Shown: positions 3,939 to 47,299 of the stretch, in pieces
How the letters are laid out: each line of letters opens with the position of its first letter
Position numbering within the stretch: the stretch's first letter is position 1
From: a virus
Length of the DNA: 64,000 nt
Reading direction: 5' to 3' (one strand)
Virus record (IMG/VR): IMGVR_UViG_3300027714_000005
Made by a program: the position numbers and the translations under genes
Notes under the pieces: generated by a model
What the model saw: the letters and a program-made list of their open reading frames with translations, nothing else
Told to the model about the DNA's origin: nothing
The model's database searches: none

Positions 3939-4994
3939 ATGAAGGTCGCCATTCTAAACGACACACACGCAGGGTGTCGCAATTCCTCTGACATTTTTAT
4001 GGCATATCAGGAACGCTTCTATAGTGAAGTGTTCTTTCCATATCTGTTAGAGAATAATATTAAACATATCTTACACTTGGGTGATTACTACGATAACCGT
4101 AAGACAATCAACTTCAAGGCACTGCAACACAACCGTAAGATATTTCTAGAACCTATGCGTAAGCATGGTATTACTATGGATATAATTCCTGGCAATCATG
4201 ACGTGTACTACAAGAACACCAATGAGTTGAACGCACTGAAGGAACTACAAGGTCACTACATGAATGAAGTGAACCTCGTAATGGAACCATGCGTCATTAA
4301 CTACGGTGGAACTGATATGGCATTGATTCCTTGGATTAACCCTGAGAACGAAAAATCAACACTTGAGTTTCTAAAGAACACCAAAGCAACACTTGTGGGC
4401 GCCCACTTGGAACTGGCAGGTTTTGAGATGTCACGTGGTCAGGTATGTATGGACGGTATGGACAAGAGTGTGTTCGATAGATTCGAGACTGTTCTGACTG
4501 GCCACTTCCATGCCAAGTCTAGTATGGGTAACATCCATTACCTTGGTGCTCAGATGGAGTTCTTCTGGAACGACTGTGGTGACCCTAAACACTTCCATGT
4601 GCTTGATATGGAAACGAGAGAACTAACACCTGTTCGTAATCCGATTACTATCTTTGAGAAGATTTACTACGATCACGAGAACATGGCAAAGTTCCAAGAC
4701 CTCTCTTATCTTGACAATAAGTTTGTGAAGGTTATCGTTACTAACAAGGGTGACGCATACGATTTCGAACGATTCATTGATCGGGTACAATCACAGAAGA
4801 TTCATGAACTGAAGATTGCTGAAGACTTCAAAGAATTCACTGGTGAGAACGTTGCGGACACGGTGTCGGTCGAAGATACCGAACAGTTGGTAATCAACTA
4901 CATTGACGCTGTTACTACTGACCTAGATAAGTCACGTATTAAACGAGAGGTGTCTAGTCTAATGACTGAAGCACAGAGTATGGAAATTGTATGA
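3939..4994 (+). CDS. 47: recombination endonuclease gp47 (Mre11/SbcD-like)
   Basis: DTH, LGD, GNHD, GHFH metallophosphoesterase motifs; synteny. Confidence 0.95.
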   Translation: MKVAILNDTHAGCRNSSDIFMAYQERFYSEVFFPYLLENNIKHILHLGDYYDNRKTINFKALQHNRKIFLEPMRKHGITMDIIPGNHDVYYKNTNELNALKELQGHYMNEVNLVMEPCVINYGGTDMALIPWINPENEKSTLEFLKNTKATLVGAHLELAGFEMSRGQVCMDGMDKSVFDRFETVLTGHFHAKSSMGNIHYLGAQMEFFWNDCGDPKHFHVLDMETRELTPVRNPITIFEKIYYDHENMAKFQDLSYLDNKFVKVIVTNKGDAYDFERFIDRVQSQKIHELKIAEDFKEFTGENVADTVSVEDTEQLVINYIDAVTTDLDKSRIKREVSSLMTEAQSMEIV

Positions 4995-6986: not shown

Positions 6987-7024
6987 TCACTTATATTATT
7001 AAATAAACCAGAGAGAAGTACATT

Positions 7025-7702
7025 ATGGAACTATCCGACATCACCATGCAGGTTCTCAAGAACTATGCTACCATCAACCCTAACATCGTTATCACCGAAG
7101 GTAATACGATCAAGACTATTTCTGTTGCACGGAATGTCTTATCCAAAGCAGAACTCTCTGAGGAGTTTCCGCAATCATTTGGTATCTATGACCTGACAGA
7201 ATTCTTAAACGTTCTGTCGTTGGTTGATCAACCCCGACTCAAGTTTGAGAAAGACTTTGTGACCGTGGGTGACTCGACTGGTCGTTCGTCTGTGAAGTAC
7301 TTCTTCTCTGACCCTGAGATGTTAACCTCGCCCGGCAAGGACATCAATATGCCAGAAGCGGACGTTAAGTTTACCCTAGATACTGACACACTTGGTAAAG
7401 TGAAACGTGCCGCAGCTGCACTCGGTCATGACGAGATATCAATCGCCCCAACTCAAGGTGCAATTCGACTATCTGTTGTTGACAGTAAGGACGCGACAAG
7501 TAACACATTCTCTATTGACGTAGAGGGTACGTACCCCGAAGGAGTTGACTTCAACTTCATCATGAATGTTAGTAACCTAAAAGTTATTAACGAAGACTTT
7601 GAGGTTGGTATCAGTAAGAAACTTATCTCACAGTTTACTAGTAAACAATCTACGATTGAATACTTTATTGCACTTGAAAAATCATCTACTTACGGAGAAT
7701 AA
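7025..7702 (+). CDS. 45: sliding clamp gp45
   Basis: LKNYATIN, FGIYDL.EFL, YFIALE C-terminus. Confidence 0.93.
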   Translation: MELSDITMQVLKNYATINPNIVITEGNTIKTISVARNVLSKAELSEEFPQSFGIYDLTEFLNVLSLVDQPRLKFEKDFVTVGDSTGRSSVKYFFSDPEMLTSPGKDINMPEADVKFTLDTDTLGKVKRAAAALGHDEISIAPTQGAIRLSVVDSKDATSNTFSIDVEGTYPEGVDFNFIMNVSNLKVINEDFEVGISKKLISQFTSKQSTIEYFIALEKSSTYGE

Positions 7703-7921
7703 ATGATGGCAAAACCCAACAAAGCAGAACGAGACCACACATCAATGTACGAACTGGGTAACCGAGTTGCCCGTTCATCAGTCGCGGTGATCGATACCGT
7801 AGTACAACGTGGTGGATTCAAGGGAGAAGAACTCTCTACCATTGGTCAATTACGTGACCAAGCAGTTCAGATTATCCAACTCTGTGAAGAGTATCAGTCT
7901 GAACAATCTGTTGACGAGTGA
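7703..7921 (+). CDS. hypothetical protein
   Basis: IDTVVQRGGFKGEELSTIGQLRD; RBS GGAG upstream. Confidence 0.7.
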   Translation: MMAKPNKAERDHTSMYELGNRVARSSVAVIDTVVQRGGFKGEELSTIGQLRDQAVQIIQLCEEYQSEQSVDE

Positions 7922-39441: not shown

Positions 39442-40157
39442 ATTTTAAACATGAACCAGTCACGTTGACTGAAATGAATGCAGTGACCACTGATACTGGT
39501 CGTAAGTATATGACACCCGAAGGCATTAACCTTCCGTCTATTACAACGGTGCTATCCATTTTGTCACGTGACTCCATCGCCAAGTGGCGTAAACGTGTTG
39601 GTGATGCAGAGGCGAACCGTGTCTCATATCGTGCATCGACCCGTGGTACATCTGTTCACGAAATCTGTGAGAAGTACGTGAACAACGACCCAGCCTATGA
39701 CAAGTTCATGGCAACCGACCCCGACACTGGGGAACAAACGTTGACTACCCGCACACCTGACCTAATCGATTCTTTCCTAAAGATTAAACCAATCCTCGAT
39801 GAACGTCTGACTACGGTGTACGCACAAGAAGCACCCCTGTACTCTACCCATCTGGGTGTTGCAGGTCGTGTGGATTGTGTGGGTATCTTCGATGGTAAAC
39901 TATCCATCATTGACTACAAGACTTCTATGAAACCCAAGAAACTCGATTGGGTTAAGAACTACTTCATGCAGGAAGCAGGTTATGCTGTAATGTGGGAAGA
40001 ACGTACTGGTCAACCGATTACTCAGTTGGTTACTATTATCTCTGTTGATAATAACGAACCTCAAGTCTTCATCGAACATCGTGATAACTGGATTAATACG
40101 TTAAGAAATACAATTAAACAGTATAATGAGGAAAACTCTGCTTCCATTTTGTTATAA
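39438..40157 (+). CDS. PD-(D/E)xK exonuclease (Cas4/RecB-like)
   Basis: PSITTVL, RGT.VH, AGRVD, IIDYKTS, Y..Q..GY. Confidence 0.88.
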   Translation: MNFKHEPVTLTEMNAVTTDTGRKYMTPEGINLPSITTVLSILSRDSIAKWRKRVGDAEANRVSYRASTRGTSVHEICEKYVNNDPAYDKFMATDPDTGEQTLTTRTPDLIDSFLKIKPILDERLTTVYAQEAPLYSTHLGVAGRVDCVGIFDGKLSIIDYKTSMKPKKLDWVKNYFMQEAGYAVMWEERTGQPITQLVTIISVDNNEPQVFIEHRDNWINTLRNTIKQYNEENSASILL

Positions 40158-40160
40158 ATA
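40153..40160 (+). promoter_or_regulatory. gp55 late promoter
   Basis: TATAAATA. Confidence 0.7.
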
Positions 40161-40193
40161 GTGGTATAATAACATTTTACTTATGGGAATTCG

Positions 40194-41492
40194 ATGTTAC
40201 AGTTTAGTCAACTCAATGAGACATCTCTCACTTTTGCTGAGATTGTACGTCCTGACAGGGCGTACCGTGCAGACCTCTTTATTCAAAAACTAAAATCAGG
40301 CGAACCCTTTGAAACTACAAAGGGTGACTCGATAGTTTTACAGTACGACCCCGCAATTGAAAAGGCGATTCGTACAGGTGATAAAAAGGGACTACCAATC
40401 AAGGCACTAAAAACCTTGGATGGCACAGAGATTGCGTTTGGTGTACTCTCAAAGACCGCAGAGTTTGGTGGTGGCCGTGGTTCTGGCGGTGGTTCGGATA
40501 ACACCCGTGCAACCGAATCCGCTCAGTGTGTCTACGCACAACTTATGTGGGACAACCCCAAAACAAACTTCTCTCCTGACGAACTCCGCTCCACCTTTAC
40601 AAAGGTTCAGGTTGACGCAAATTTGTCTGATGTTCTTCTTGGTGATGACCAGTGGATTGCATCATCTATTAACACGGCAAAACTTCTCCATAAGGTATTA
40701 AAGAAGAAACAGTACACGTGGCATCGTGGTTCACAGTGGGTTAGTAAACTTGAAGACACCTTCAAGAAACTCAACCGTGAAGAGAAACTATTCAGTAATC
40801 TAAACAAATGGACTCCTGCCGACATCTGGGCAATCGCTCGTGGTGCAGAAAACAAGTATAATATCCTTGACGCAAATAGTATTTCCGAGTTAAACAATGA
40901 GTTGATGAAAGCCTATGCTGCTCGTGATATCATGGGTATCTCACTCAAACAGACGGGTAAAAAATCTAAGTTGTCGCAAGTTAACTTCCGTGCTCCATTC
41001 GTACCACCAAAATTCATCAAACAAACCTTCGGTAAAAGAAACTTCTACGGTGCGAAGGATGGGTACTTGTTTGGGTCTGGTGGATTCGAACTTCAATTCC
41101 GAACCTTCCCAACCTTCCAGTGTGAGATTATAGGTAAGAAAGCAAAACACGGTAAAGTATCCTACGGTGGTATCAGTGATGCTATGAAGGATGCTGTCGG
41201 TAGACCACTTACTCAGAAGAAGGTTGTAGAACAATTACTCAAGAAAAATCCAGTGATGTTCTATGAACAGTTCTGGAAGTACTATGTGATGACTAGTGTA
41301 AAACAAAGTGACAGTAAAGAAGAACTGATTGCAAATCTAGAGAAGAAAGGTTTCGAGTGGTCTGTATCCAAGTACATGGTATTAGAACTGTTCACTTCGA
41401 TTAAGGGTAGAGAACAACAAGTGTTAGACTATATTGTTCGTATTGCAAAGTCACAAACAAAGAACTCAGCCGTTCACTTGAAGGTGTTGTAA
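40194..41492 (+). CDS. restriction-endonuclease-fold protein with capsid-targeting-like N-terminus
   Basis: MLQFSQLNE leader; ATE..Q, WTPADIW...GISLK. Confidence 0.55.
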   Translation: MLQFSQLNETSLTFAEIVRPDRAYRADLFIQKLKSGEPFETTKGDSIVLQYDPAIEKAIRTGDKKGLPIKALKTLDGTEIAFGVLSKTAEFGGGRGSGGGSDNTRATESAQCVYAQLMWDNPKTNFSPDELRSTFTKVQVDANLSDVLLGDDQWIASSINTAKLLHKVLKKKQYTWHRGSQWVSKLEDTFKKLNREEKLFSNLNKWTPADIWAIARGAENKYNILDANSISELNNELMKAYAARDIMGISLKQTGKKSKLSQVNFRAPFVPPKFIKQTFGKRNFYGAKDGYLFGSGGFELQFRTFPTFQCEIIGKKAKHGKVSYGGISDAMKDAVGRPLTQKKVVEQLLKKNPVMFYEQFWKYYVMTSVKQSDSKEELIANLEKKGFEWSVSKYMVLELFTSIKGREQQVLDYIVRIAKSQTKNSAVHLKVL

Positions 41493-42712
41493 TGAAATTT
41501 AAGAACTTTATAACAGAACAAAAGAACACTCACATGACCCATATCGAGGATAAGGTTCTCTATGGTGGTGTGAACGGTACACGTCAAGCAATCAATGCAC
41601 TACGTGAACTCCGTGATATGTTGTCTGGTCAGACTAAGAGTAAACTGTCAACCAAGTGGGACGGTGCTCCCGCAATCTTCTGTGGCACAGACCCTAGTGA
41701 TGGAAACTTCTTTATTGCAAAGAAAGGCATTTTCAATAAGAATCCCCAACTCTTTAAGTCTGCTCAAGAGATTGATGCAGAACTTTCGGGTGACCTTGCG
41801 GTCAAGATGAAACTCGCATTGAAACACGTACCTGAACTTGGTATCAAGGGTATCATTCAGGGAGATTTCTTATTCTCAACCGGAGATACTAGTAATGAGG
41901 TTATTGAAGGTGACAAGTATACAACCTTTCATCCCAACACCATCATATATGCGATACCTTATGATCAAGCTGCCGATGTACGAAAGGCGAAGATTGGAGT
42001 CGTGTGGCACACAACCTACACAGGTGATACTTTCGAGTCACTCAAGGCATCCTATGGAGTGGACGTATCCAAATTTAAGGATTCGAAGAATGTCTGGTCA
42101 CAGGACGCAATGTTAAGAGATGTGTCTGGTGCGACTATGGATGCGAAGGAAACTAAGGAAGTTACGGAACACCTAAGTAAAGCGGGTAAGATATTTAACC
42201 AGATTTCTGGTTCTACTCTCCGTGAGTTAGAAGGTAATAAAGACCTCGCAACACTAATTGAACAGTATAACAACACTTTTGTGCGGCAACAAACGGTCAT
42301 TACTAACACTAAAGCGCACGTTCAGGGTTTAATCAAGTGGTTGGATGCAAAGTTTCAGAAAGAGAAAGATAAGAGAAGTACTGAGAAAGGTAAGGCAACC
42401 CAACAGAAGAAGTTGGATGACTTTATGAAGTTCTTCTCCACCAAAAATCAAAAGAATCTAGTTGCGATGTTTGATTTACAAAAAAGTATTGTACTTGCAA
42501 AACTGAAACTTATAAATAAACTTAATAGTATCTCTAAAATCGATGCGTTTGTACAAACCAAAACTGGTTATAAGATTCGTACAGGTGCAGAGGGGTTCGT
42601 TGCTATTGACAAGTTAGGTGGTGACGCGGTCAAGTTAGTTGATCGACTAGAATTTTCTTATAATAACTTTAGTCCAGATATCCTAAAGGGTTGGGACAAA
42701 GTTAAGAAATAA
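41492..42712 (+). CDS. ligase/nucleotidyltransferase-fold protein (DUF6267-like)
   Basis: MKFKNFITE leader; TKWDG (motif I), QGDFLF, EGFV, VKLVDR. Confidence 0.65.
   Translation: MKFKNFITEQKNTHMTHIEDKVLYGGVNGTRQAINALRELRDMLSGQTKSKLSTKWDGAPAIFCGTDPSDGNFFIAKKGIFNKNPQLFKSAQEIDAELSGDLAVKMKLALKHVPELGIKGIIQGDFLFSTGDTSNEVIEGDKYTTFHPNTIIYAIPYDQAADVRKAKIGVVWHTTYTGDTFESLKASYGVDVSKFKDSKNVWSQDAMLRDVSGATMDAKETKEVTEHLSKAGKIFNQISGSTLRELEGNKDLATLIEQYNNTFVRQQTVITNTKAHVQGLIKWLDAKFQKEKDKRSTEKGKATQQKKLDDFMKFFSTKNQKNLVAMFDLQKSIVLAKLKLINKLNSISKIDAFVQTKTGYKIRTGAEGFVAIDKLGGDAVKLVDRLEFSYNNFSPDILKGWDKVKK
42511..42518 (+). promoter_or_regulatory. gp55 late promoter (intragenic)
   Basis: TATAAATA about 220 nt upstream of 42739. 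Confidence 0.45.
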
Positions 42713-42738
42713 ATGGGATAAACCAGAGAGGTAAACCA

Positions 42739-43122
42739 ATGTCCAAACTAATCGGACTAAAAGAATTTATTAAGGTACTCGAATCACCGGACGAAGCATT
42801 GAATATGCAACAACGTCTGAAGATGGCACGTACCTTCAAGAAGAACAAAGCAAAAATCGCAATGGGTCGCAAACGTGCGGAACGTAAAGTTGCTGATATG
42901 CCCACTCTAAAGAAACGTGCACAGAAACAAGCACGTCAAGTCTTCCTCAAGAAAATCACTAAAGGTGTCGAAAAGGGCGATCTCTCTATGGCACGTAGAG
43001 CGTCCATCGAGAAACGATTATCCAAGTTTAAACCTAAGATAGATAAACTAGCAAAGAAACTACTTCCTGCGGTACGTAAGGGTGAACTAGCTAGAAAACG
43101 AGGCGGAAACAAGAGTGATTAA
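42739..43122 (+). CDS. highly basic putative internal head protein
   Basis: LKEF...DE leader then K/R-rich helix. Confidence 0.55.
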   Translation: MSKLIGLKEFIKVLESPDEALNMQQRLKMARTFKKNKAKIAMGRKRAERKVADMPTLKKRAQKQARQVFLKKITKGVEKGDLSMARRASIEKRLSKFKPKIDKLAKKLLPAVRKGELARKRGGNKSD

Positions 43123-45031
43123 AGATTTTAAATCATACCTAACCGAAGAAGCGAAGGAGGTTTATTTTACGTTTGGTAGAATGAATCCACCTACTATCGG
43201 TCACGGTAAAGTATTAGATACTATTGCAAAAAAAGCAAAGGGTGCGGACTATAAAGTCTACGTATCCCAGTCACAAGGGCCTAAAGACCCACTGTCATAT
43301 TCTGACAAGGTAAAACACCTACGTAAGATGTTACCCAAACATGGTCGAAACATCATGGTTGATAAGGGTGTACGAAGTGTGTTCGATATCGCAACTAAGT
43401 TGTATGACCAAGGATACAAACGAATCACTATGGTAGTCGGAGAAGACCGTCTACGTGAGTTCGAAGTCCTGTTGAACAAGTATAACGGAACCAAAGCACG
43501 TCACGGTTTCTATAATTTTGAGAAGATATCTGTTGTATCTGCTGGTCGTAGAGACCCAGATGCAGAAGGTGTTGAAGGTATGTCTGCGTCTAAGCAACGT
43601 GCCAATGCAAAAGAGAATGATTACACCGCATTTACTCAGGGTGTACCAACGTCTATGTCCGATAAAGATACACGGAAGTTATTCAATGATGTACGGAAGG
43701 GACTAGGTCTCAAGGAAGAGACATCTTTTAAACGTCACATTAACATGGGTTCTGCGGGTGATATCCGTGAAGCATATGTTGAAGGTAAGTTGTTTGAACT
43801 TGGCGACATTGTTGTTATCAAAGAAAGCGAAGAAGTCGGTGTGGTATCTGTACTGGGTGCGAACTATGTTATCGTTGAATGCGGTGACAAGAAAGTTCGC
43901 AAGTGGTTGGATGCTGTTGAACTTGTTGAGAAACAGGACAAGGACATCAAAGACCGTGAAGGAACTCAACCCGCACGTTATCATTCAGGACTCAAGAAGT
44001 CTACCAAGGTAAAACGTGACGCACACTTCAAAGCAAAGAAAGATGGCCCTGCGCCAGGCGATGCGACTGCCAAGACTAAACCATCCAAGTACACCAAAGC
44101 ATTCAAAGATATGTATGATGAAGACTGTTGGGATGGGTATAAACAAGTAGGTGTGAAGAAGAAAGGGAACAAGACTGTTCCTGACTGCGTACCAGTAAAT
44201 GAGTATGGCGGCCCTGAAATCTCCAAAGCAGATTACCTGAAGAAACAACGTAATAGTACCCCCCCTATCAAAGAAGATGTTTCTCAGAAAGAGTTGGATG
44301 ACCTAGAAAAATTCGGTGATAGATTACTCAATAAGTTTGATGTTGATATCGAATTCACTCGTCACTTCAAAGACCGTATGAACGACAAACGTAACAAACC
44401 TGCTATTACTGTTGTAGAGATAGAACGTCTATTCAAGAAGATGGCAGATAACAAGGGTAAGAAGATTAAGAAGCACGGTAACTCAGAAGCAATCCTCAAG
44501 GATATGCAGTCTGACCTAAACCTACCTGTTGTGGTTAACTGGAAGAACGGTGAGTTCGAAGTTGTTAACAAAACAATAATGCGTAAGAAGGGGTTCAAGT
44601 CACCCGATCCAGTTCTCACTTACGAGGGTAAGATGCTCGACAAACTGAAATCAGTAACTATTGGTAAGAAGTCATATCAGGACGCATTAAAAACACTCCA
44701 GACTTTGTTGATACGCAAAAAGAAAGAGGGTGGTGGTAAACTGAGACATGGTACTGAGTACTACGCTGCACAAGTCGCTAAGTCATATCAGGGTATGAGT
44801 GACCGAACTCTCCATAAGATGTTAGGAGAAGATTGTGGTGCTGGTGAAGAAGGTACAGACAAACTCATCAAGAAGTATAAGAAAGATACTCCGATGTCTG
44901 AAGATGCAGTCAAGGCAGCGCAGGAAAGAATCAAGTCTGAAAAAGATGCCGACAAGAAGAAGCATGATGGACTACTAGATCGTGCTAGACTTGCTCGTGC
45001 AAAAGCAAAGAACGCGAGTACAAAACCATGA
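43115..45031 (+). CDS. HxGH nucleotidyltransferase fused to multiple small modules (putative polyprotein)
   Basis: MIKDFKSYLTE leader; FGRMNPPTIGH, VVG.DR, GMSASK; C-terminal modules separated by xxE sites. Confidence 0.75.
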   Translation: MIKDFKSYLTEEAKEVYFTFGRMNPPTIGHGKVLDTIAKKAKGADYKVYVSQSQGPKDPLSYSDKVKHLRKMLPKHGRNIMVDKGVRSVFDIATKLYDQGYKRITMVVGEDRLREFEVLLNKYNGTKARHGFYNFEKISVVSAGRRDPDAEGVEGMSASKQRANAKENDYTAFTQGVPTSMSDKDTRKLFNDVRKGLGLKEETSFKRHINMGSAGDIREAYVEGKLFELGDIVVIKESEEVGVVSVLGANYVIVECGDKKVRKWLDAVELVEKQDKDIKDREGTQPARYHSGLKKSTKVKRDAHFKAKKDGPAPGDATAKTKPSKYTKAFKDMYDEDCWDGYKQVGVKKKGNKTVPDCVPVNEYGGPEISKADYLKKQRNSTPPIKEDVSQKELDDLEKFGDRLLNKFDVDIEFTRHFKDRMNDKRNKPAITVVEIERLFKKMADNKGKKIKKHGNSEAILKDMQSDLNLPVVVNWKNGEFEVVNKTIMRKKGFKSPDPVLTYEGKMLDKLKSVTIGKKSYQDALKTLQTLLIRKKKEGGGKLRHGTEYYAAQVAKSYQGMSDRTLHKMLGEDCGAGEEGTDKLIKKYKKDTPMSEDAVKAAQERIKSEKDADKKKHDGLLDRARLARAKAKNASTKP

Positions 45032-45270
45032 TTAAGATGGCATTAACCAGACGGGCGGGTGAACTCATTGAGGGTGCTCTTGCGGATAAGTCTAAGAAGT
45101 CGGGTATCTCCGTAGATACATTAAGAAAAGTATACAATCGTGGTGTTGCCGCATGGAAGACTGGTCACCGGCCAGGCACTACTCCCCAACAGTGGGGATA
45201 TGCCCGTGTAAATGCCTTCATAGTAAAGAAGAAAAAGGGTGGTCTGAACCACGATAAGGATTTAGCATAA
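45028..45270 (+). CDS. small basic protein (DUF5824-like)
   Basis: KSGIS...L.KVYNRG.AAW..GHRPG.T.QQW..ARVN.F. Confidence 0.65.
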   Translation: MIKMALTRRAGELIEGALADKSKKSGISVDTLRKVYNRGVAAWKTGHRPGTTPQQWGYARVNAFIVKKKKGGLNHDKDLA

Positions 45271-45271
45271 C

Positions 45272-46786
45272 ATGAAAACTATTAAACAGTTGTTAGAAAC
45301 GTATCAACAATTCTTGGATAAGTCACCTAGTAACTGGGGTGAGGAAAAGGTAGTTGCCTACGGAGAAAAGAAAGGTTACAAAGTGATCGGTGTATGTGGC
45401 CACGGTAGGATAGACGGTATCGTACTGTTCGGTCTGGATGCGGGAGACAAGAAGTATGTCGGTAAGGAAGCAAAAGTCAAGACTGGTCAAACAGTATTCC
45501 GTTATGCTACTCGCAATAGTATGGCAGGTGACATCTTTCCGTTAGTTAAGATTGATGTTAAGAAAGGTCTTCTGTATAACCTATCTCAGAAGTCAAGTGA
45601 AGGTGAGATTGAACACGCAGAGTTTGAGACCAAAAGTGTTAAGTTGCGTTACTTACGTCTTGCCGCGACTGCCAACCTCCGTGATATTACTGGGTTCGAT
45701 CCCGGCTTTGGTTCAATGAAAGAGTCTGTTGAAGAAGGTAAGAAACCTTCTGCCGCTGATAGACTGACTTCTCGACTCAAGAAGGGTGGAGTGGACTTGG
45801 ATAAAAGAGCTAAGGATAGAAAGTCTGAACACGACAAACTGAAGAAAAAGTATGCCAATGAGTCTGTAGACCTTGACGAAGGTAAGATGAAAGAGTTTCA
45901 TGGTTACGTAAAAGCAGGGAAGTCCGCAGAGTGGATTTCTAAAAAGATTGGTATCGATGTCAAAGCAATAAAGGATTTCATGAAAGATATGAAAGAATCA
46001 AACGAATTACAAGAGGGTAAGAACTTCATCCCCGACCTTCAAAAAATCGTAAAGAATAAGAGTGCGGGTAAAGTTGGTGGTGTCATGATTGATATGTTTA
46101 CCGCCAGTGCTATCACCCAAGCATACGATAAAGTTAACCCCGCAATGAAGAAGAAGATGGAAACATCTGATGTTAACAAGCTTGTTGGACTTGCACAGAG
46201 ACTCATGGGAGAGTCTGTAGAAGTTGAACAGGTTTCCGAAGCAATTAAAACGTTTAAAGATATTAACGAAGCAATTATGTCTACTTGGACAGTTACTGTT
46301 CAAAAACCAGTTAATAAGCTTAAGAAAGGTGATAAGCAAGTTGTTAACGCTCGTTCTGCTTTTGAAGCAATTAATAAAGCTATGAAGTTGTGGAAAGACC
46401 CTGCTCTTAAATCTGCTTCTGCTGATTCATTTAAGATTACTAAGGAATCTCTTGATGAAGCATCTGCAAGAGCAGACGCAATGAGAGCAATGGGTAAACG
46501 TGGTAAGGACAGTGCGGATGATGATAATGACGCAACCGATGATGACCGCAAGGCGGCATCTAAGAATGTTCTAATGCAAGTACGCAAAGCATCCGACCTA
46601 CCCAAAGGTGGGGATATTGAGTTTGAAAACGGTAAGAAGGGTAAGATTTCTCAAGACGATGCACAGAAGATGACTCGACTGTTCGGTATGTTGAAGAAAC
46701 CACAGGACAAAGAAAAGTTTCAGAAAATAATTTCAAAAGATTTGAAGTCTCTTCAAGGTCTTCTTAAACGATTGGGAAAACACTGA
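45272..46786 (+). CDS. modular putative internal-head polyprotein
   Basis: MKTIKQLLE leader; repeated ES(V/L)..xxE linkers between K-rich modules. Confidence 0.6.
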   Translation: MKTIKQLLETYQQFLDKSPSNWGEEKVVAYGEKKGYKVIGVCGHGRIDGIVLFGLDAGDKKYVGKEAKVKTGQTVFRYATRNSMAGDIFPLVKIDVKKGLLYNLSQKSSEGEIEHAEFETKSVKLRYLRLAATANLRDITGFDPGFGSMKESVEEGKKPSAADRLTSRLKKGGVDLDKRAKDRKSEHDKLKKKYANESVDLDEGKMKEFHGYVKAGKSAEWISKKIGIDVKAIKDFMKDMKESNELQEGKNFIPDLQKIVKNKSAGKVGGVMIDMFTASAITQAYDKVNPAMKKKMETSDVNKLVGLAQRLMGESVEVEQVSEAIKTFKDINEAIMSTWTVTVQKPVNKLKKGDKQVVNARSAFEAINKAMKLWKDPALKSASADSFKITKESLDEASARADAMRAMGKRGKDSADDDNDATDDDRKAASKNVLMQVRKASDLPKGGDIEFENGKKGKISQDDAQKMTRLFGMLKKPQDKEKFQKIISKDLKSLQGLLKRLGKH

Positions 46787-46789
46787 ACC

Positions 46790-47299
46790 ATGAAATCCTT
46801 TGACGAACATTGCAGTTGTGTAAAAGAATCATCTCTGATTGAGAATAATCAGTACAGGGTTGGTTCTGAGAAATACTTCGAGTACTTCCGTGATGTTCGT
46901 GAAGCATATCATGCCGGAGAACTGACAGTAGACCCCAGTGAGATTGATATCGTTGAGGGTAACCTTGGTGAGTTCGCAACCTATAAGGGTGAAAATGTTG
47001 CGTTAGATTGTATCTTCGAAGCAGAAGAGAAGAACCCACCATTGAACAAACCCAAAGTCGGTGGTGCAAAGAAGTACTATGTGTATGTCAAGGATGGAGA
47101 CAAGGTAAAGAAAATCTCTTGGGGTGACACCACTGGACTCAAAGTTAAGTTGAATGACCCAGCTGCACGTAAGTCTTTCGCTGCACGACACGATTGTGCG
47201 AACAAGAAGGACAAGACTAAAGCAGGATACTGGGCGTGTAACCTACCACGTTATGCCAAACAACTCGGACTATCTGGAGGAGGAAACTTCTTTTGGTAA
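46790..47299 (+). CDS. DUF6321-like protein
   Basis: MKSFDEH leader; KKYYVYVK..KVKK..WGD...RKSFAARH.C...AGYWAC. Confidence 0.65.
   Translation: MKSFDEHCSCVKESSLIENNQYRVGSEKYFEYFRDVREAYHAGELTVDPSEIDIVEGNLGEFATYKGENVALDCIFEAEEKNPPLNKPKVGGAKKYYVYVKDGDKVKKISWGDTTGLKVKLNDPAARKSFAARHDCANKKDKTKAGYWACNLPRYAKQLGLSGGGNFFW

Follow-up and report, generated by a model that had tools for sequence, protein, structure and literature searches.

The open reading frame (ORF) at 43115-45031 (+ strand, GTG start, 638 residues) of the virus record IMGVR_UViG_3300027714_000005, of which a stretch of 64,000 nucleotides was analysed (the window), encodes a chain made of a leader (MIKDFKSYLTE), a PPAT/NMNAT-like HIGH nucleotidyltransferase, an SH3-like barrel and then seven small modules. 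The window belongs to a marine T4-like myovirus, with all large ORFs on the + strand and a G+C content of about 41%. On balance our analysis points to a product that is probably late, capsid-destined and cut after glutamate (Glu) by a head protease, rather than a cytoplasmic metabolic enzyme. The 11-12-residue leader would act like the T4 internal proteins' capsid-targeting sequence and carry the whole chain into the prohead, where a Glu-specific T4-type prohead protease (a gp21 homologue) would remove the leader and cut after the Glu that follows each module. Cleavage would give seven to nine mature products, among them the nucleotidyltransferase, alone or joined to its SH3-like domain, an endoribonuclease of RegB/RelE fold, a small helical domain and short basic peptides. 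The freed products would stay with the DNA and be ejected into the next host, the RNase being kept harmless in the uncut chain and freed inside the head. With one leader per chain and a carboxy-terminal Glu of its own for each module, such a chain could gain, lose or reorder modules, or have them split off as separate genes behind a leader of their own.

The closest database relatives of the ORF occur in Phage C48C1 (61% identity over 70%), in Methylophilales phage Melnitz and Pelagibacter phage HTVC008M, and in hundreds of cyanomyoviruses. These relatives are annotated 'cytidyltransferase' and all are in Kyanoviridae. A preliminary description, made from the letters of this DNA alone, had read the ORF as a polyprotein punctuated by xxE sites. 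All of the motifs it listed were found at their positions, LKE at residue 199, LVE at 270, YDE at 334, VNE at 361, IKE at 385, TYE at 502, LGE at 570 and MSE at 594, together with EFTRHF at 413 and VNKTIMRK at 484, and the span 44276-44626 corresponds to residues 388-504. Within the single sequence the pattern is weak. Plain xxE matches any Glu and is uninformative, [LI]xE was observed 10 times where shuffled sequences predict 4.4 (p ~0.01), and [LIVMFY]xE was observed 16 times against 11.7 expected (p ~0.1), an enrichment that was not significant. The first and last of these results would suit an xxE pattern that arose by chance in a Lys/Glu-rich protein. That explanation is effectively refuted by position-specific Glu in 115 of 115 contexts at one junction, by the other junction classes and by the coincidence of predicted domain boundaries with Glu sites; it is the comparative and structural data that make the pattern real.

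Junctions were scored from the ends of recognisable modules. The end of the 388-504 module was anchored as KT[IV]MRK plus 12 residues, finishing in Y, V or F. In every one of the 115 distinct contexts in which the protein continues the following residue was Glu, after which many unrelated sequences were found, and in 49 distinct contexts the protein stops at the module end, without the Glu. The last strand of the module ends at Y503 in the structural model, indicating that the fold does not need Glu504. The Glu codon was GAA in 22 and GAG in 22 of 44 distinct DNA contexts (80 viral contigs) and the stops were TAA or TGA, indicating selection on the amino acid and not on a DNA recombination signal or an old stop. 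Two other origins for the junction Glu, a stop-codon relic (TAA to GAA) and recombination microhomology, were rejected, given the equal use of GAA and GAG, the variable flanking bases and the occurrence of both TAA and TGA stops.

Anchoring the remaining ends in the same way extended the rule. Glu followed GMxΦx at the transferase end (M1) in 56/75 contexts, ELV at the SH3-like end (M2) in 38/39 (within two residues), M[YF](G/D) at the M3 end in 54/72, PNCVx at the M4 end in 45/51 and LHKMLG at the M7 end in 20/34, and the M8 end, DTP(G/M)E, had Glu in 46/62. This amounts to 59-97% of contexts at these six ends against a Glu background of 7%. Of the 7 junction classes, 5 have the form hydrophobic-x-E, from which K-Y-E and P-G/M-E depart. 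S-CREM2 gp154, a short homologue, finishes in DVELV, one residue short of the Glu.

The junction data also bear on the main rival explanation, a packaged polyvalent effector that is never cut (its leader perhaps removed), in which the junction Glu caps domains or solubilises linkers. There are precedents for polyvalent proteins left unprocessed, such as the N4 virion RNA polymerase (PMC5512222). Free-ending forms of the RNase-fold module finish in KY with its carboxylate and fused forms have Glu next, which fits a charge mimic, and the P3 position often departs from the T4 consensus. The Glu rule, however, is common to seven structurally unrelated module ends and to the leader, which argues for one shared external constraint and not seven separate capping needs, and the modules also occur as separate genes with leaders of their own. 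We hold an uncut chain to be rather unlikely, although it is the alternative to be taken most seriously. The known polyvalent proteins (Iyer et al. 2017, PMC5512222) resemble the ORF in joining many unrelated domains in mosaic order, in including a BECR-fold domain with His and Thr (in the ORF a putative RNase), in having solo versions of their domains and in their predicted packaging in the head and delivery on infection. They differ in that the prohead protease, and not a built-in peptidase, would do the processing here, at Glu junctions of stereotyped form, and in that the RNase-fold domain here matches no Pfam PBECR model. A Pfam scan of the ORF found no MuF, zincin-like peptidase or LPD domain, the hallmarks of polyvalent proteins.

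Module boundaries were compared among relatives and with the predicted fold. In an alignment of 27 homologues whole modules were cleanly present or absent and even permuted; in two of them (P0088 and P0099) the QDPDIKD...CWDGY block comes after the 388-504 module and not before it. Hidden Markov models of nine modules, searched against 270 proteins, gave at least 60 distinct module orders. The indels, permutations and module ends coincided with the xxE boundaries, so that the reading of the preliminary description held on this point. The 388-504 module alone falls into 1,222 clusters at 50% identity and is N-terminal, internal or C-terminal in proteins of 136-1,317 residues, with the transferase, DUF5824 and an AAA_33/Zeta-toxin-like P-loop kinase among its partners. 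Melnitz gp18 is one protein that combines residues 2-364 of the transferase in the window with the 80-residue and 169-residue ORFs that are separate genes here. PHROG profiles contain a fusion of the DUF6267 protein to the transferase (PHROG 455) and a fusion of the 127-residue protein to the 388-504 module (PHROG 23027, the phiM12 type).

AlphaFold, run on the full-length chain with 60 homologues, gave confident blocks at residues 13-200 (transferase), 221-270 (SH3-like), 336-360 (hairpin), 387-503, 517-572 (three helices) and 596-638 (helix). Low-confidence stretches covered residues 207-214, 273-335, 364-386, 505-516 and 573-595 and sat exactly at the proposed boundaries. Taken together, these blocks and breaks place the ends of the folded units at E272, E336, E363, E387, E504, E572 and E596, all of them sites named in the preliminary description.

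The leader, MIKDFKSYLTEE (residues 1-12; 43115..43150, + strand), precedes strand 1 of the transferase in the model, and leaderless homologues exist that begin directly at the first strand. In the T4 capsid-targeting sequence of IPIII, Y4 and F7 serve targeting and I8 and E10 serve processing (PMC9026906). Here F5 and Y8 match the targeting positions and L9 and E11 match the processing positions, and the spacing F5-x-x-Y8-L9-x-E11 equals that of MKTYQEFIAE of T4 IPII/IPIII, which was read from the T4 genome. The leader is shared by unrelated cargo, namely DUF6267 proteins, transferases, solo RNase-fold proteins and Melnitz gp2, gp15 and gp16, and it also heads cluster proteins of C48C1, Melnitz and HTVC008M. 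Unrelated carriers of the RNase-fold module begin with MKTFKEFIAE, MKSFKEFIYE and similar sequences, the first being identical to T4 at 8 of 10 positions. In solo RNase-fold proteins the leader Glu adjoins the module start (MKTFNTLFE followed by EVSQ), as Glu does at the internal junctions. Within the window a strict leader pattern was found on 3 of 95 ORFs, 2 of which lie in the transferase cluster. The YLTE of the leader also resembles a capsid-protein maturation site; T4 gp23 (SFLTE, cut before AE) aligns with Melnitz AFLSE followed by AA. We consider the leader a putative capsid-targeting sequence that would give entry to the prohead. A search of the literature available to us found nothing linking capsid-targeting sequences to cyanophage proteins, and the phiM9 paper contained nothing of relevance. 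Away from the cluster, gene 2 of Melnitz (82-1131 of its record) encodes a RimK-like ATP-grasp protein with the leader MTQKFSQFITEE and may be another packaged enzyme.

The T4 internal proteins IPI, IPII and IPIII and the Alt protein carry a capsid-targeting sequence, are cleaved by gp21 and are ejected with the DNA. The ORF resembles them in its 10-11-residue type of leader with aromatic/aromatic/aliphatic/Glu spacing, in its predicted late expression, in the diversity of cargo behind a conserved leader and in its predicted cleavage by a protease that cuts after Glu. It differs in having one leader for a chain of up to nine modules, each with its own Glu site. The cargo here is also of another kind, an enzyme cargo (a HIGH transferase and a RegB-like domain) of marine Kyanoviridae.

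Late expression is indicated by a T4-type late promoter box, TATAAATA, at 40153..40160 (+ strand), 41 nucleotides upstream of the first gene of the cluster. The window contains eight copies of this box (8964, 11496, 25990, 27419, 40153, 42511, 48226 and 50758), all on the + strand, where 3.3 are expected over both strands, and those at 40153 and 48226 lie 41-42 nucleotides upstream of ORF starts. In Melnitz the box occurs as the sole copy in 13 kb, at the equivalent position, 47 nucleotides upstream of gp15, and in S-CREM2 it lies 25 nucleotides upstream of gp154, after a terminator.

Homologues of the transferase have been found in virions. The cyanophage cytidylyltransferase (T4-GC190) was detected in S-SM1 virions by mass spectrometry (PMC3037559), and mass spectrometry of S-CREM2 virions detected gp154 and the products of the downstream genes 155, 156 and 160 (PMC10665884). 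S-CREM2 gp154 starts MKNFSSFLTE, and gp160 has a CW...NCV module resembling residues 337-360 of the ORF. T4-family prohead proteases all cut after Glu (PMC5694885), and Melnitz, which has the same cluster, encodes a gp21 homologue (38% identical, E 5.5e-26). The T4-like leader, the late promoter, the virion mass spectrometry of homologues and the gp21 homologue in cluster-bearing relatives give four independent lines of support for the capsid entry that the preliminary description had proposed. The inner-body and ejection proteins of the giant phages phiKZ, 201phi2-1 and SPN3US, cut by gp21 homologues, are similar in having several x-x-E sites per chain and in being cargo packaged with the DNA; cleavage there is mostly propeptide removal, whereas here independent, shuffled modules would separate.

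These data can also be set against a more conventional explanation, in which the product of an auxiliary metabolic gene acts on nucleotides or cofactors in the cytoplasm and has a variable, mostly disordered tail, recombination in low-complexity linkers accounting for the module pattern and carry-over for the detection in virions. We judge it improbable. The detection was made in two different phages by two laboratories, the leader and late promoter are conserved, the tail holds well-folded domains, and the Glu is invariant while its codon varies between GAA and GAG, which speaks against a DNA-level recombination signal. What favours such an enzyme is that the gene lies beside the primase-helicase and other replication genes in all relatives, that the catalytic motifs are intact and PPAT/NMNAT-like, and that virion mass spectrometry of S-CREM2 gave 3 peptides only (PMC10665884).

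Several observations weigh against a capsid-destined chain that is cut at its junctions. The transferase gene adjoins replication genes and not head genes, and a tblastn search with Melnitz head proteins found no head genes within the 64-kb window, the protease and capsid genes lying outside it. Virion proteomics covers short cyanophage forms, with the nucleotidyltransferase and SH3-like domain only, and no long multi-module form. In some junction classes just 59-75% of contexts carry Glu at the fixed position, and the Leu or Ile that T4 has at P3 is sometimes replaced (K-Y-E, P-G-E). A generic test at BLAST alignment ends gave Glu frequencies of 0.15 at ends and 0.13 at starts against a background of 0.08, an approximately twofold and noisy signal in place of which the module-anchored counts were used. 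Finally, disorder is predicted for the modules at 273-335, 364-386 and 573-595, and these may serve as spacers or basic peptides and not as effectors.

One of the downstream modules is the RegB/RelE-fold (BECR) domain at residues 388-504 (44276..44626, + strand), which ends in TYE. A structural model of residues 385-504 reached a predicted local distance difference test score (pLDDT) of 89. When this model was compared with 48,161 PDB chains using VIA-align, T4 RegB was the best match (Z 5.9 over 113 residues), followed by RelE (Z 5.8), HigB, YafQ and ParE; of the 16 best matches nearly all are members of the RelE/ParE superfamily, and the Z values are middling. A search of BFVD matched a T4-like coliphage protein, a RegB-type 'site-specific RNA endonuclease' (E 4.7e-6, TM-score 0.69/0.61), and also a 602-residue protein of phiM12 that carries the module at 51% identity. 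Foldseek against the PDB returned weak rows only (E 0.06-0.6), and it took VIA-align and BFVD to bring out the RelE/ParE/RegB signal clearly. The suggestion in the preliminary description that 44276-44626 resembles a RelE/BECR ribonuclease was thus borne out at the level of the fold, with T4 RegB and RelE as the top structural matches.

The invariant residues of the module include H417, R421, D424, R426, K486, T487 and R490, with H417 and T487 unchanged in sets of 30 and 60 sequences. The BECR active-site pattern consists of a His near the first helix and a Ser/Thr in strand 4 (PMC5512222). Alignment of the module profile with T4 RegB by hhalign was not significant (probability 0.4%) and placed FTRH417FKDR421 on YSQH48LLDR52, with a Lys here opposite His68, the second catalytic His of RegB (PMC3014915). 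Pfam scans of the ORF and of 30 module-bearing proteins found no family covering the module, and there was no sequence match to the Pfam RelE or PBECR models; one module-bearing protein gave a faint match to ParE_toxin (E 0.072). The module therefore has a RegB/RelE fold and is plausibly catalytic. It shares the fold of T4 RegB, RelE, YoeB and HigB, including the extra first helix of RegB, and its [FY]-[ST]-x-H-x-x-D-R motif lines up, in the non-significant hhalign alignment, with H48 and R52 of RegB. It differs from RegB in that the sequence similarity is not significant and a Lys takes the place of His68, and from RegB and the RelE-family toxins in that it is embedded in a polyprotein, without an antitoxin partner, and is not an early free-standing gene. 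Long metagenomic proteins were also seen that join the RNase-fold module to AAA_33/Zeta-toxin-like kinase domains, and the HTVC008M cluster contains a P-loop (GGPGSGKT) kinase-like gene, gp129 (4291-4953 of its record).

The HIGH-type nucleotidyltransferase occupies residues 13-201 (43151..43717, + strand) and ends in the junction LKE. Its TIGH (residues 27-30) and SASKQR (158-163) motifs are intact. It matched PF01467 (CTP_transf_like) at 22.5 bits, with a cut-off of 21, and also PHROG 395 and 3041. Foldseek matched it to PPAT, NaMNAT and NMNAT at E ~5e-5. The 'cytidyl' label comes from the Pfam family name alone; the fold is PPAT/NMNAT-like. In common with PPAT (CoaD) and the NMN/NaMN adenylyltransferases the domain has the Rossmann-like fold of the HIGH superfamily, a TxGH motif and an SxxxxR-like motif, and it differs from them in sharing 12-20% identity only. 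A sequence search of the whole ORF against PDB chains returned no match, and the same was true of the neighbouring DUF6267 protein. The transferase is followed by a linker and the SH3-like beta-barrel (residues 202-272; 43718..43930, + strand), with strands at 232-270 (pLDDT 76-85) and the junction LVE. In S-CREM2, gp156 (7013-7726 of its record), which was detected in virions by mass spectrometry, adjoins the transferase, and its GG...DIDLHLVV recalls Pol-beta-type nucleotidyltransferases.

The smaller modules, all on the + strand, lie on either side of the RNase-fold domain. The basic module at residues 273-336 (43931..44122), predicted to be disordered, ends in MYDE and matches the N-terminal half of DUF5824. 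Profile positions 1-56 of DUF5824 (PF19141) match residues 286-337 at 22.8 bits, under the cut-off of 25, and positions 64-125 match the next ORF (45028-45270); no full-length DUF5824 match above the gathering score was found in the ORF. DUF5824 is thus split over two ORFs here; in Melnitz and HTVC008M a single protein holds both halves near each other. The CWDGY...PDCVP module (residues 337-363; 44123..44203) is a beta-hairpin ending in VNE, and the YGGPEISKADYLKK module (residues 364-387; 44204..44275) is present or absent among homologues and ends in IKE. After the RNase-fold domain come a three-helix module (residues 505-572; 44627..44830) ending in LGE, a short linear motif, GAGEEGTDKLIKKYKKDTPMSE (residues 573-596; 44831..44902), that recurs across the cluster in other phages, and a long basic C-terminal helix (residues 597-638 and the stop; 44903..45031). 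The short linear motif, in the form G(A)GEEGTDxLxKKYKKDTP(G/M)(E/Q), recurs in HTVC008M gp128, in the C48C1 transferase and in many metagenomic proteins, and may be a binding peptide.

The ORF sits in a cluster conserved downstream of the primase-helicase, in the order 432-residue protein, DUF6267 protein, 127-residue basic protein, transferase, 80-residue, 504-residue and 169-residue proteins. It overlaps both neighbours, with GTGATTAA at its start and ATGA, shared by its stop and the next start, at its end, an arrangement that suggests coupled translation. The DUF6267 protein (41492..42712, + strand, 406 residues), which in PHROG 455 is fused to the transferase, has the leader MKFKNFITE and a KWDG motif, which recalls motif I (KxDG) of covalent nucleotidyltransferases, the ligases and capping enzymes. 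It had no sequence match in NCBIfam, a search that gave nothing beyond one faint generic match, and a literature search found no paper on DUF6267 or DUF5824. The basic 127-residue protein (42739..43122, + strand) overlaps the ORF start by 8 nucleotides and is the partner of the RNase-fold module in PHROG 23027. The 80-residue ORF (45028..45270, + strand) matches the C-terminal half of DUF5824 and is found inside the transferase protein in Melnitz gp18 and HTVC008M gp130. The 169-residue ORF (46790..47299, + strand), which begins MKSFDEHCSCVKE followed by SSLIE, equals the C-terminal part of the transferase protein in Melnitz gp18. The 504-residue ORF (45272-46786) is Lys/Glu-rich and starts MKTIKQLLE; its sole family match was a faint one to LPD22 (E 0.023), a domain of polyvalent proteins, and the ORF could encode another polyprotein of this type.

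T4-like cyanophages and their relatives, which rank among the most abundant ocean viruses, have the 'cytidylyltransferase' as a core gene, and the presence of its product in virions was reported earlier and never explained. The new elements are the meeting of T4-leader and polyvalent/BECR themes in the 'cytidylyltransferase' core cluster of marine T4-like phages, a stereotyped Glu boundary between cassettes and a large RegB-like domain family beyond Pfam. More tentatively, and with less confidence than for the ORF product itself, the late cluster as a whole (about 40153-47299), in marine myoviruses of Kyanoviridae type, could be a cassette system by which proteins travel with the DNA. Any module that stands behind a T4-type leader and ends in a Glu site would then be packed, cut free and ejected, and the RegB-like RNase would be inactive in the producing cell while held in the polyprotein and act immediately on host mRNA or against defence in the next cell. 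If the capsid-destined, Glu-cut reading is true, these phages bring an RNase and a reshufflable set of enzymes into the cell along with their DNA, under a simple cargo rule of one leader and a Glu after each module, which would extend both the T4 internal-protein paradigm and the polyvalent-protein idea.

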